From: Escherichia phage mobillu
Strand: one strand, 5' to 3'
Sequence record: MN850622.1
DNA length: 64,000 bases
This document shows positions 6,494 to 10,205 of the stretch, piece by piece. A model generated the notes under the pieces. That model was not told where the DNA came from, did no database searches, and saw only the letters and a list, made by a program, of their open reading frames with translations. Each line of letters opens with the position of its first letter. Within the stretch, counting starts at the first letter, position 1. The position numbers and the translations under genes are program-made.

Positions 6494-6669
6494 CCCGTGA
6501 ACAAGCTAATAAATTGATGGACCTTATCCGTGACTTACGTGAAGCCGATTCAGATTTGAATGATGTAGCTTATCATGCGGTAAATGATAACGAAGACTTT
6601 TATGAAAATCAGGTTGATGCTTGTCTGAATGATTTGGTGAATTTTGTTGAAACTTTAATTGGTGAATAA
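6490..6669 (+). CDS. hypothetical acidic small protein (59 aa)
   Basis: ATGA overlap with preceding micro-ORF; below ORF-track cutoff. Confidence 0.35.
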   Translation: MTREQANKLMDLIRDLREADSDLNDVAYHAVNDNEDFYENQVDACLNDLVNFVETLIGE

Positions 6670-6670
6670 T

Positions 6671-7201
6671 ATGAAAACTGTAATTGAAACAACCGAGTTG
6701 TTTGGCGATTTATGTATCGAAAAACGTGGTTATGCTTACGTTCTGACACAAGAAGATGATGCTGTTACTATTCTTCCTATGGAACTGGACAAGATTTTGA
6801 AACTCAATCCGCCCGGCCATGCATCTGTAATTAACATTGATGAAGACCTTCAAGTTCGTTTTTATCACGGTCTTTATAGTGGGGTTAATATCGAAACAGA
6901 AGATGAATGCCTTTCTATCAATAATTGGAAAACATTCGTCACTAAGGTGAAAGAATTCATAGAATCTGAAACTGCCAAAAAGGCCAAACTTCAATGGGCT
7001 AAATGCCGTAATGCTTTTATTACAAATCAGGACCACCCTGACTATACAACAGTCCTAGGCGTTAATCCTTCTTATGAAGACGGTGATGTCGTAGTTATTC
7101 GCCAAATTGATGACCTTCGTCAGCATATCATTACATTAGACAAAGATGAAGCAGTTGCTCTTAAAGCTTATCTCGATTCTATTATCCCAACTTTGAAATA
7201 A
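6671..7201 (+). CDS. hypothetical protein
   Basis: ORF 6659..7201, start at ATG 6671. Confidence 0.55.
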   Translation: MKTVIETTELFGDLCIEKRGYAYVLTQEDDAVTILPMELDKILKLNPPGHASVINIDEDLQVRFYHGLYSGVNIETEDECLSINNWKTFVTKVKEFIESETAKKAKLQWAKCRNAFITNQDHPDYTTVLGVNPSYEDGDVVVIRQIDDLRQHIITLDKDEAVALKAYLDSIIPTLK

Positions 7202-7210
7202 GGAATTATT

Positions 7211-7684
7211 ATGATTATCAATGAAAACTCTTGGCACTTTAAAATTTATGCCGCGTTCAATAGTACATGGAATCGCCCGAAAACGTTGTGTGCTTATTTT
7301 TGGAAAACGTTAATCCCGGTATTGGCTGTTTCAATTATTGGATTTGCGATTTTAGCAGCAGTCACAATTATTGGCCAGGAAATTTTAACTAAATTCTTTG
7401 TTTTTAGCAGTCTATGGACATTAGTTCCGGCCTCAATTGGCGTAGGCATTTTAATGGTAGCAGTCATGGCTTTTATTGCTACCGGGTTGGTAATTGGTCC
7501 GTCTTGGTTGTTAGACAAATATAACGACAGAAAATATTATAAAGAAATTGAGTTCATTGCACAAAACCAAGAACGAATTAAAAATGGACTTGAACCTATT
7601 GAACGTAAGAAATCATTAATAGGTGAATACCTTAAAGCTCGTAAAGAAAAAGTCTGTCCTACTCTTGAATATAAGGCTAAATGA
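7211..7684 (+). CDS. hypothetical membrane protein
   Basis: Two to three hydrophobic helices (LIPVLAVSIIGFAILAAV.., LVPASIGVGILMVAVMAFIATGLVIG). Confidence 0.55.
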   Translation: MIINENSWHFKIYAAFNSTWNRPKTLCAYFWKTLIPVLAVSIIGFAILAAVTIIGQEILTKFFVFSSLWTLVPASIGVGILMVAVMAFIATGLVIGPSWLLDKYNDRKYYKEIEFIAQNQERIKNGLEPIERKKSLIGEYLKARKEKVCPTLEYKAK

Positions 7685-8670
7685 TGAAAACGATTGTTAA
7701 GGCTTACTTTGGTAGCCACCTTTATGGAACGTCTACTCCTGAATCTGACGTCGATTTTAAAGAAATTTATGTCCCTCATGCTCGTGATATCTTGACCGGT
7801 AACGTTAAAGAACACATGAGCAAGAACACGAATAACACATCTTCTAAGAACACAAAAGACGACGTGGACCATGAGTTGTATAGTCTCAAATATTTCTTTA
7901 AACTAGCTGCGGATGGTGAAACCGTCGCATTAGATATGCTTCACACTCCACAAAGTCTAGTAGTTAAATCTGATTTGCCTGATGTATGGAAGTATATTCA
8001 AGATAACAGGTCTCGTTTCTATACCACTAACATGAAATCTTATTTAGGGTATGTCCGTAAGCAAGCTTCTAAATACGGTGTCAAGGGTTCTCGACTGGCT
8101 GTTCTTCGTCAAGCCCTTAAACGTTCTAATGAATGGGGACAATACTTTGATAATGGTGCAGTAATTCGTTTATCACATATGAAGAATGTTCTGCCTGTAG
8201 GTGAATTTGCTTCATGGGTTGAAACCGAAAACGAGAAAACAGGTAAGCAAACATTCTATAATCTGTTAGACCGTAAATTCCAAGACACATTAACCAATAA
8301 AGAGTTCAATGCCATCCTGGTTAAACTGGAAGAGAACTATGGTGAACGTGCTCGTAAGGCAGAAGCCAACGAAGGTATTGACTGGAAAGCATTGAGTCAT
8401 GCATGTCGTGGTGGACTTCAACTATTGGAAATTTACAAAACCGGCGACCTGGTTTACCCACTTCAGGATGCTCCATTTATTCTCGATGTTAAGCTTGGTA
8501 AACATACGTTTAAAACTGTACAAGAATTCCTAGAAGATATCGTTGACCAAGTTGAACATGCGTCAGAACAAGCCGCTAAGAACGGTATGCAACAAAAAGT
8601 AGATATGAGTTTCTGGGATGATTTCCTTGAGCAAGTCTATCTCGAAAATCATAATTCTTACTATAAATAA
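7681..8670 (+). CDS. Pol-beta-superfamily nucleotidyltransferase-like protein
   Basis: N-terminal GS-x9-SDVD motif (YFGSHLYGTSTPESDVDF). Confidence 0.55.
   Translation: MMKTIVKAYFGSHLYGTSTPESDVDFKEIYVPHARDILTGNVKEHMSKNTNNTSSKNTKDDVDHELYSLKYFFKLAADGETVALDMLHTPQSLVVKSDLPDVWKYIQDNRSRFYTTNMKSYLGYVRKQASKYGVKGSRLAVLRQALKRSNEWGQYFDNGAVIRLSHMKNVLPVGEFASWVETENEKTGKQTFYNLLDRKFQDTLTNKEFNAILVKLEENYGERARKAEANEGIDWKALSHACRGGLQLLEIYKTGDLVYPLQDAPFILDVKLGKHTFKTVQEFLEDIVDQVEHASEQAAKNGMQQKVDMSFWDDFLEQVYLENHNSYYK
8663..8670 (+). promoter_or_regulatory. candidate T4 late promoter (TATAAATA)
   Basis: Exact TATAAATA about 32 nt upstream of ATG 8702. Confidence 0.35.
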
Positions 8671-8701
8671 ATAGATAAATAACCATTAACTTGAGGTAAA
8701 T

Positions 8702-8968
8702 ATGAAAAAATTAGTAATTGGTTTATTCGCTGTAATGATGGCATTCTCTGTTGGTGCTACCACGGGCGCAGGAGCTGATGGTAACCAGTCTTCTGGGCCT
8801 TCTAACGGTTCGGTAAATGCATCACATTCTCAGGGTATTGAGAATATCAAATCAAGCTATATTAATAGCACGGCCGGACAAGCAACTGAAGCATGGTCAA
8901 AGGGTCGAGTAGTTACTCGCTCTGTATTCTGTGATATGCCTAATTATGTTGCTAAGTGTGATAAGTAA
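8702..8968 (+). CDS. hypothetical secreted protein
   Basis: Signal peptide MKKLVIGLFAVMMAFSVGA; Gly/Ser-rich. Confidence 0.55.
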   Translation: MKKLVIGLFAVMMAFSVGATTGAGADGNQSSGPSNGSVNASHSQGIENIKSSYINSTAGQATEAWSKGRVVTRSVFCDMPNYVAKCDK

Positions 8969-8973
8969 ATGTG

Positions 8974-8993
8974 GGGACCTTCGGGTCCCTTTA
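8974..8993 (+). terminator. candidate rho-independent terminator
   Basis: GGGACC-TTCG-GGTCCC followed by TTT. Confidence 0.5.
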
Positions 8994-9019
8994 GGGGGTT
9001 AAAATATTTTTAAAAAGTA

Positions 9020-9056
9020 GTGTACATGCTTTTAGGATATGATACTATAGACCTAT
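9020..9056 (+). promoter_or_regulatory. candidate early promoter
   Basis: TGTACA -35-like, TACTATAGACC -10 region as in other cassettes. Confidence 0.35.
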
Positions 9057-9086
9057 CGAAACGAAATGAGTAAATTGGAGAATAAA

Positions 9087-10067
9087 ATGTTCAACGTTCA
9101 AATCAAAAAAGGTATCTATCGTAATAACGAAATCTCTGGTTCTTATGTTGCCACAAAGACCTGGTTCCCGGCAAAGCTTAATCCTGAATGTTCCCACTTA
9201 GGTGATGGTAAAATTTTCGTTATGATTGATGGATCTGAACGTGGAGTATGGGTCTTCAAATCAGACATCGTAATGGAAGGAGTTGAGACGTCACCAGTTG
9301 CAGTTGTTGAAAGCACTGAAGATATGAAAACTCGTATCAACAAACGCTTTAAAGTAATGAACATGATGACGAATGGCATTATCGATGGCAAAATTCGTTC
9401 ACTCATTATTTCAGGTGCAGCTGGTATTGGTAAGACGTATTCTCTGGATAAAGCACTTAATAATGCTAATGATAATGGTTTCATCAAATACAAAAGCATT
9501 AATGGTAAAATCTCTGGTATTGACCTTTACGAACAACTTTGGCTCAACCGTGATGCAGACAGCGTTCTCTTAATCGATGACGTTGACGTATTCTCAGATA
9601 TGGACATCCTGAACCTTCTTAAAGCAGCATTAGATACCGGAGATAAACGCAAAGTTTGTTGGAGCACTGCGTCATCTTATCTCGAGGATAAGGGTATTGA
9701 TAAAGAATTTGAGTTTGAAGGTACTATCGTTTTCATTACAAACGTTGATATCGATAAAGAGTTAGAACGGGGTTCGAAACTTGCTCCACACCTTCAAGCT
9801 TTAGTATCTCGTTCAGTGTATCTCGACCTTGGAGTACACTCTAATGAAGAGATTATGGTTCGAGTTGAAGATGTAATATTATCTACTGACATGATGCAGA
9901 AACGTGGTCTGACGGATGCAGAAACGTATAAAGCATTGTCCTGGATGAAGGCTAACGTATCTCGTCTTCGCAATGTATCATTACGTACGGCTCTTTATGT
10001 AGCAGATTTTATTTCAACTGATAAAGATGGTTGGGAAGAAATCTCGGAAGTTACTTTACTGAAATAA
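9087..10067 (+). CDS. AAA-type P-loop ATPase-like protein
   Basis: Walker A ISGAAGIGKTY, Walker B VLLIDDVD; start placed at ATG 9087 after GGAG (ATG 9066 possible). Confidence 0.6.
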   Translation: MFNVQIKKGIYRNNEISGSYVATKTWFPAKLNPECSHLGDGKIFVMIDGSERGVWVFKSDIVMEGVETSPVAVVESTEDMKTRINKRFKVMNMMTNGIIDGKIRSLIISGAAGIGKTYSLDKALNNANDNGFIKYKSINGKISGIDLYEQLWLNRDADSVLLIDDVDVFSDMDILNLLKAALDTGDKRKVCWSTASSYLEDKGIDKEFEFEGTIVFITNVDIDKELERGSKLAPHLQALVSRSVYLDLGVHSNEEIMVRVEDVILSTDMMQKRGLTDAETYKALSWMKANVSRLRNVSLRTALYVADFISTDKDGWEEISEVTLLK

Positions 10068-10205
10068 GCTTATAGGAAGTTCTGAGGTAACAAAAGCCAT
10101 AAAGATGAATAATCATATGGCTTACCTCAAAGAAGGACACCAGGAACCTACTGAGGGCATAGAAATATTTAAAAATAATGATGTACAAATCAAAGAGGAT
10201 ATGTT

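Follow-up and report, generated by a model that had tools for sequence, protein, structure and literature searches.

The nrdC.11 gene of phage mobillu

The open reading frame (ORF) at positions 7681..8670 on the + strand of Escherichia phage mobillu (sequence record MN850622.1) encodes a protein of 329 amino acids (aa) and is confirmed in the ORF list of the 64-kilobase (kb) window, the whole stretch of 64,000 nucleotides (nt) that was analysed. The original prediction, made from the letters alone, assigned it to the Pol-beta-type nucleotidyltransferases (NTases) with an unknown target. By sequence, the gene is the Mosigvirus orthologue of T4 nrdC.11 and a member of the RlaP family, and is thus already catalogued. 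The gene and its parts are as follows.

7681..8670, + strand: nrdC.11 orthologue, an RlaP-family (PF10127) Pol-beta nucleotidyltransferase of 329 aa (from the ORF, PF10127, PHROG 388 and the T4 alignment)
7681..8034, + strand: predicted N-terminal NTase core, residues ~1-118 (from conservation in 99 sequences, the AlphaFold2 model and profile-profile alignment)
8035..8667, + strand: predicted C-terminal helical domain, residues ~119-329, with the last helix at 309-328 (from conserved blocks and the AlphaFold2 model)
8101..8325, + strand: clade-specific variable insert, residues ~141-215 (from the alignment, the AlphaFold2 model and the T4 comparison)

Direct reading of the N-terminus gives MMKTIVKAYFGSHLYGTSTPESDVDF, and the GS-x9-SDVD motif on which the original assignment was based is present as described, with G11-S12 followed by the nine residues H13-E21 and by S22-D23-V24-D25. 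The ORF starts with ATGATG, the first ATG of which shares nucleotides with the stop codon that ends the upstream ORF (7211..7684), within the sequence ATGA. The true product is probably a 328-aa protein starting at 7684, a minor correction to the ORF call, because this second ATG is the start used by the RefSeq records of near-identical phages and by most database homologues (328 aa), T4 nrdC.11 has a single equivalent ATG (MKT...), and an AAGG lies 7 nt 5' of it.

Family membership and distribution

The region 6500-10200 is 98.9% identical to that of Escherichia phages vB_Eco_mar005P1 and APCEc01 (Straboviridae, Tevenvirinae, Mosigvirus), where the ORF carries the RefSeq annotation “nucleotidyltransferase”. 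The protein matches PF10127 (“RlaP, RNA repair pathway DNA polymerase beta family”) with E=5.9e-13 and 49.5 bits against a gathering cut-off of 23, the match spanning residues 7-152 only, which correspond to profile positions 23-148 of 249. The match to PHROG 388 “nucleotidyltransferase” (E=9e-126) runs end to end, over residues 1-329.

The T4 counterpart, NrdC.11 (NP_049709.1, 336 aa), shares 78% aa identity with the Mosigvirus protein (328/329 aa) over its full length and possesses the same motifs, and both genes occupy the same slot, downstream of tk/rI and upstream of nrdC.10. In UniProt the T4 protein is listed as an [quoted passage not shown], and a match between nrdC.11 orthologues and the COG3541 nucleotidyltransferase domain was published in 2006 (PMC1524935).

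A homologue is found by tblastn in 1,520 of 50,697 phage records and is labelled nrdC.11 in Aeromonas phage 31, Acinetobacter phage Ac42 and Sinorhizobium phage phiM19. Near-identical copies exist in hundreds of sequenced T4-like phages, and the gene is in this sense already known. A HMMER search of 1.84 billion representatives of 50%-identity clusters returned 3,285 relatives with an E-value of at most 1e-3, of which 751 also pass 1e-30. Among the 150 best relatives listed, nearly all are 300-350 aa long and align over their full length, and therefore it is the complete two-domain protein, beyond its N-terminal motif, that constitutes a large conserved family.

Many homologues in GenBank and UniRef bear the misnomer “thioredoxin” (for example those of phages JK36, mogra and vB_EcoM_TU01 and the UniRef entry “Thioredoxin n=6”), which seems to have been taken from the gene name nrdC.x. 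The NrdC.11 homologue contains no thioredoxin domain, and the real thioredoxin NrdC is encoded ~7 kb downstream.

The gene is incomplete in two records: only its last 39 codons are kept in OL964745.1 (T4, 159.7 kb), and in OR525698.1 (T4-like phage KMB43) it is present in two pieces, with 67% of the gene covered. These natural or laboratory losses are consistent with dispensability of nrdC.11. The T4 segment from nrdC.11 to mobD.3 can be deleted in the laboratory (PMC9825161), as expected of an accessory or counter-defence gene.

Catalytic residues and the NTase core

Conservation was assessed in an alignment of 99 representatives with 34-52% identity. Residues G11, S12, S22, D23, D25, Y132, K236, R243 and G273 are invariant, while N57, D61, D63, D85, W103, Y124, Q128, K131, R223, D234, H240, P260 and K271 show a conservation of 90% or more, with N57, D63 and D85 each reaching at least 96% (97% for D63). 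The sequence displays the features of the Pol-beta superfamily, namely hG[GS] followed 9-13 residues on by [DE]h[DE]h, and a third carboxylate on a neighbouring strand. The superfamily assignment is thereby upheld: D23 and D25 are invariant and D63 lies on the expected β-strand. The second catalytic acid, whose absence had been named as the observation that would speak against the assignment, is D25, found in all 99 homologues.

In the structure model, D23 and D25 are located on strand 24-31, followed by K56-N57, D61 and D63 by strand 62-68, and D85 in helix 81-87. Position 61 is an aspartate in the Mosigvirus protein and an asparagine in T4 NrdC.11, so that D63, not D61, is the best candidate for the third carboxylate. 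The catalytic acids D23, D25 and D63 are all present and the predicted active site is intact.

The comparison with canonical RlaP proteins employed 56 sequences, mostly from Bacteroidota, collected with a 258-aa protein encoded on the metagenomic contig L011. D63, on the modelled strand 62-68, corresponds in the alignment to D78, an invariant residue of canonical RlaPs, and D85 to E100, with a conservation of at least 90% in the canonical 250-aa form. The core GS...SDxD...KN-x3-DhD...[DE]xL is common to NrdC.11 and canonical RlaP, and in a profile-profile alignment of the NrdC.11 clade with canonical RlaP residues 4-130 only align (E=1.9e-5, probability 78%).

On the contig just mentioned (L011 80-1866, JGI metagenome 3300056752), the canonical 258-aa RlaP is encoded upstream of a 337-aa NrdC.11-type protein, in tandem and with overlapping stop and start codons. 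Since they occur side by side, the canonical and NrdC.11-type RlaPs can coexist and are presumably not redundant.

Structure model and the helical domain at the C-terminus

The AlphaFold2 model built with the 99-sequence alignment is confident, with a predicted local distance difference test (pLDDT) value of 93.9 and a predicted template-modelling (TM) score (pTM) of 0.84. The modelled NTase core comprises strands 3-10, 24-31, 45-49 and 62-68 with interleaved helices. It is followed by a mainly helical domain made of helices 119-132, 135-155, 206-228, 235-254, 264-271, 277-300 and 309-328, with a three-stranded sheet (177-201) among them. The C-terminal 200 residues, in which no motif had at first been recognised, contain the conserved blocks Y124, Q128, K131, Y132, K135 and R138, then R223, then K236-x3-H240-x2-R243, and finally K271 and G273; their predicted helical fold would give the protein the general architecture of RlaP and of kanamycin nucleotidyltransferase.

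The 2.1 Å structure of RlaP from Pseudomonas fluorescens (PfRlaP) shows an N-terminal NTase domain and a C-terminal helical domain, the last helix of which packs onto the NTase domain (PMC12776372). The NrdC.11 model likewise comprises an NTase core, a helical C-terminal domain and a long terminal helix (309-328), and the two may have in common a helix bearing a K-x3-[YH]-x2-R motif. In the AlphaFold2 model of the canonical 258-aa RlaP (pLDDT 95.0) the core elements occur in the same order as in the NrdC.11 model, and one helix begins with K156-x3-Y160-x2-R163, the counterpart of K236-x3-H240-x2-R243 at the start of NrdC.11 helix 235-254. The gap between the preceding helix and this one is nine residues in the canonical model and ~80 in NrdC.11. 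NrdC.11 is ~70-80 aa longer than canonical RlaP owing to its variable insert, and it is devoid of the helix that the canonical 250-aa form has at its N-terminus. On the basis of topology and one motif, the C-terminal 200 aa may be read as the RlaP helical domain with a clade-specific insertion.

At the sequence level, hhalign profile-profile comparison revealed no demonstrable homology between the C-terminal domains of NrdC.11 and canonical RlaP. A C-terminal hhalign match with a score of 136, against 10-21 for column-shuffled controls, was rejected as an artefact, its score falling to 13.7 after the sparse terminal columns were trimmed.

A Foldseek search of BFVD gave whole-length alignments to many phage “nucleotidyltransferases” of 230-290 aa, with 12-14% identity and target-normalised TM scores of 0.5-0.72, which indicates that the helical domain is structurally common to shorter phage NTases. 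Among solved structures no close relative was found by Foldseek, the best match being kanamycin nucleotidyltransferase (E=1.2e-3, TM 0.30). Sequence searches of the PDB with the single protein and with the 99-sequence profile retrieved nothing relevant, the PfRlaP structure being evidently absent from the copy searched.

The variable insert

The segment of residues 141-215 evolves differently from the rest of the protein. Identity between the Mosigvirus and T4 proteins is 91% for residues 1-140 and 90% for residues 216-329, and it drops to 39% for residues 141-215, a segment with almost no conserved columns in the 99-sequence alignment and missing from the canonical 250-aa RlaP. In the AlphaFold2 model it is composed of a helix extension, the three-stranded sheet 177-201 and the start of helix 206-228, and it is basic, with an isoelectric point (pI) of 9.1.

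Among the codons for residues identical in Mosigvirus and T4, a fraction of 0.47 in the insert, a small sample of 32 codons, and of 0.27-0.47 in the flanks differs synonymously. Because these values are similar, the excess divergence of the insert is non-synonymous, and by this measure there is no obvious sign that the insert is an older module that was swapped in. Such a pattern suggests selection that is either relaxed or diversifying. The insert may have a role in the recognition of the RNA substrate and is a candidate specificity element. This fast-evolving basic insert in the helical domain is the only new detail that the analysis adds.

Comparison with other nucleotidyltransferases

Kanamycin nucleotidyltransferase ANT(4') and its relatives (1kny, 6nlt and LinB, 3jyy) combine an NTase and a helical domain in the same layout as NrdC.11, rank first or nearly so among its matches to solved structures, and act on small-molecule antibiotics. 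This layout raises the question of whether NrdC.11 nucleotidylates a protein or a small molecule, either by AMPylation of a host defence or translation factor in the manner of MNT/MntA, or by adenylylation resembling that of the aminoglycoside NTases. Such an activity is very unlikely. The structural matches are weak (TM ~0.3, 8-10% identity) and reveal no sequence-level relationship, and RlaP alone is significant by sequence. With the NCBIfam MntA model NF047752 the protein reaches 13.3 bits, where the cut-off is 60, over residues 9-26 only, and no Pfam match to a HEPN toxin is present in the neighbouring ORFs scanned. Moreover, bacterial RlaPs left E. coli proteins unlabelled (PMC12776372).

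Another fold match is HalB, the oligodeoxyadenylate synthase of the Hailong system (9dbh/9dbj), with 139 residues aligned to NrdC.11 at 16% identity. HalB is a 217-residue protein without a counterpart of the large C-terminal domain of NrdC.11, and it is part of a two-gene defence system with an ion channel, whereas the NrdC.11 locus has no such system. The similarity could nevertheless be taken to mean that NrdC.11 synthesizes or mimics a nucleotide signal to act against a signalling defence, for example an oligodeoxyadenylate that keeps the Hailong HalA channel closed. This is highly improbable, as the HalB match is limited to the generic NTase core, HalB is not retrieved by the family profile among PDB sequences, and RlaPs extend an RNA primer and are inactive on DNA (PMC12776372). 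A kinship with cGAS/DncV-like enzymes and an action against CBASS or Thoeris, also raised originally, found no backing either: the protein matches no PADLOC defence model and no CD-NTase family in Pfam, and no CD-NTase or cGAS-like chains are among the PDB fold matches listed. Equally improbable is the more specific idea that NrdC.11, instead of filling gaps in tRNA, might be a HalB-like maker of oligo(deoxy)nucleotides that silences a Hailong-type or decoy-guarded effector, with the insert 141-215 tuned to host systems.

Activity of RlaP enzymes and the proposed function of NrdC.11

As related in later papers (PMC7824862, PMC6514570, PMC12776372), the name RlaP was given by Burroughs and Aravind in 2016 because some members are found in RNA-ligase operons, and the proteins were predicted to replace nucleotides lost from nuclease-damaged RNA prior to ligation. 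The RlaPs from P. fluorescens and P. aeruginosa (PaRlaP) were characterised by Carruthers et al. in a preprint of December 2025 (PMC12776372). Both enzymes add one or two nucleoside monophosphates (NMPs, or dNMPs) onto the 3'-OH of RNA and do not use DNA or protein as substrates; they prefer Mn2+, show little base specificity and favour the 5' half of an annealed mimic of a cleaved tRNA (PMC12776372). Treatment with RlaP before ligation partially rescued the aminoacylation of a tRNA missing one nucleotide of its anticodon loop (PMC12776372). The label of unknown target in the original prediction is out of date for a protein of this named family, the bacterial members of which extend an RNA 3'-OH.

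[quoted passage not shown] In the proposed mechanism, a nucleoside triphosphate (NTP) and two divalent ions, Mn2+ being preferred in the Pseudomonas RlaPs, would be held by D23, D25 and D63, and one or two nucleotides would be added without a template to the 3'-OH of the broken RNA. Pnkp would clear the 2',3'-cyclic phosphate and phosphorylate the 5' end, and Rnl1 would seal the break, with NrdC.11 acting in trans with both. A nucleotide excised by an anticodon nuclease of the RloC type would in this way be put back, and ligation would give a functional anticodon loop. Excision of the wobble nucleotide by RloC has been proposed to render the tRNA damage irreparable (PMC2610378). For the phage enzyme itself, we infer the RNA-extension activity and its substrate, as well as counter-defence RNA repair in vivo, from this homology.

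The support computed here consists of family membership, the intact catalytic residues, the confident two-domain model and the near-complete co-occurrence with Pnkp and RnlA at the level of T4-like phage genomes. Phage records containing homologues of NrdC.11, Pnkp and RnlA, respectively, number 608/635/636 for Escherichia, 286/286/287 for Klebsiella, 83/83/83 for Shigella, 75/77/77 for Aeromonas, 69/70/69 for Acinetobacter and 56/56/56 for Enterobacter as host genus, these near-equal counts concerning the genera in which the T4-like (Straboviridae) records of the hit lists concentrate. Mycobacterium and Streptomyces phages possess Pnkp and no NrdC.11-type gene. In jumbo phages the distribution of RlaP has been reported to mirror that of RNA ligases (PMC7824862).

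Several points weigh against a function in tRNA repair. The co-occurrence is equally compatible with functional coupling and with vertical inheritance in Straboviridae. No Pnkp or RnlA homologue is present in the 64-kb window, in T4 pseT (134.0 kb) and rnlA (136.3 kb) are ~80 kb away from nrdC.11 (at 55.4 kb), and no adjacent ligase is found in four other phage contexts. Detectable sequence homology to canonical RlaP is confined to the N-terminal ~130 residues, and with an insert of ~80 aa in the C-terminal domain the choice of substrate could differ from that of canonical RlaP. The biochemistry of the bacterial RlaPs comes from a single non-peer-reviewed preprint, in which T4 NrdC.11 is marked in cluster 5 of the RlaP similarity network and described as an RlaP “of unknown function” (PMC12776372). 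Extension of an RNA 3'-OH has been shown only for the bacterial relatives PfRlaP and PaRlaP, in vitro (PMC12776372). Literature searches brought up no anti-defence role of nrdC.11.

Linkage to RNA ligases is itself variable in the family. Some RlaPs share an operon with RtcB or another ligase, whereas Mosigvirus nrdC.11 is not part of such an operon, and only “some” members have the RNA-ligase neighbourhood after which the family is named (PMC12776372). In Sinorhizobium phage phiM19 the homologue is located between two annotated RNA ligase genes, each ~4.5 kb off, which constitutes a loose linkage, and on a metagenomic phage contig (L007/L008) a CCA-adding enzyme (PolyA_pol and HD domains) is encoded 4.7 kb downstream of the NrdC.11-type gene. 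The metagenomic contexts cover five divergent representatives, mostly on contigs too short for a neighbourhood to be read.

NrdC.11 might instead add nucleotides to RNA 3' ends outside anticodon-loop repair, marking transcripts of host or phage for decay, maturing or altering the 3' ends of phage-encoded tRNAs, or repairing the acceptor (CCA) end. The missing ligase linkage in the NrdC.11 clade would agree with such tailing, as would the RNA-directed RegB endoribonuclease and the valyl-tRNA synthetase modifier encoded a few kb upstream in the same early region. No T4 phenotype or tailing activity is known for nrdC.11, which speaks against it. When given total E. coli RNA, bacterial RlaPs labelled species of the size of rRNA and of full-length tRNA, and they show little NTP specificity, both in favour of tailing; they also stop after 1-2 nt and prefer the 5' half of a nicked tRNA over a free 3' end (PMC12776372), and therefore gap filling fits better. 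RNA tailing of this kind is unlikely, and so is a function that is none of those considered here; extension of broken tRNAs by an RlaP-type NrdC.11 is the reading retained.

Genomic neighbourhood

The nrdC.11 gene is situated in the early, plastic tk-nrdC region, where the neighbouring genes are all on the same strand. On the upstream side are genes for a y05I-like protein and then for a 157-aa membrane protein. The immediate neighbours are the following.

7211..7684, + strand: 157-aa multi-pass membrane protein, phrog_944 “moron/host takeover”, the stop codon of which overlaps the nrdC.11 start (ATGA)
8702-8968, + strand: 88-aa ORF, phrog_2243, between nrdC.11 and nrdC.10, with a hydrophobic signal-peptide-like N-terminus and no Pfam match
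9066..10067, + strand: nrdC.10 orthologue, a 333-aa P-loop/AAA-like protein, phrog_1250, syntenic with nrdC.11 in T4

In T4 the slot upstream of nrdC.11 is occupied by mobD, an HNH homing endonuclease gene, in place of the gene for the 157-aa membrane protein of Mosigvirus, and no gene is present at the position of the 88-aa ORF. NrdC.10 gives weak matches to AAA_22, AAA_16 and nSTAND3 and to a clamp-loader PHROG. The nrdC.10-nrdC.11 synteny of T4 and Mosigvirus does not extend to more distant phages, and both the 157-aa membrane protein and nrdC.10 are considered here as context only. The region contains 17 promoter-like sites where 16.8 would be expected by chance, and no claim is thus made about a transcription unit.

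In more distant phages the neighbours differ. In a Slopekvirus and an Aeromonas jumbo phage (L016 3099-4160 and L015 8472-9914), NAD-salvage genes, encoding a NadR-like NMN adenylyltransferase/Nudix protein and a nicotinate phosphoribosyltransferase, are found within a few kb of the nrdC.11 homologue, a nearness that probably just reflects the common plastic early region. On the distant phage contig (L007 8001-14980 and L008 556-7535), the NrdC.11-type gene is directly followed by that of a 334-aa AcrVA2-like protein (PF26125). This protein was tested as a relative of NrdC.10, which would have made a conserved pair, and is unrelated.

Possible significance for RNA repair in T4-like phages

Recognition of the family dates from 2006, its name from 2016 and its biochemical characterisation, through bacterial members, from 2025, and the identification of this gene carries little weight as a discovery. 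The hypothesis that NrdC.11 is a third component beside Pnkp and Rnl1 in T4 tRNA repair is likewise already in the literature. The gene is dispensable and resides in a tractable model phage, which makes the question of a third component directly testable. If the hypothesis is true, T4 repair would defeat nucleotide-excising anticodon nucleases such as RloC, which were once thought to be repair-proof.

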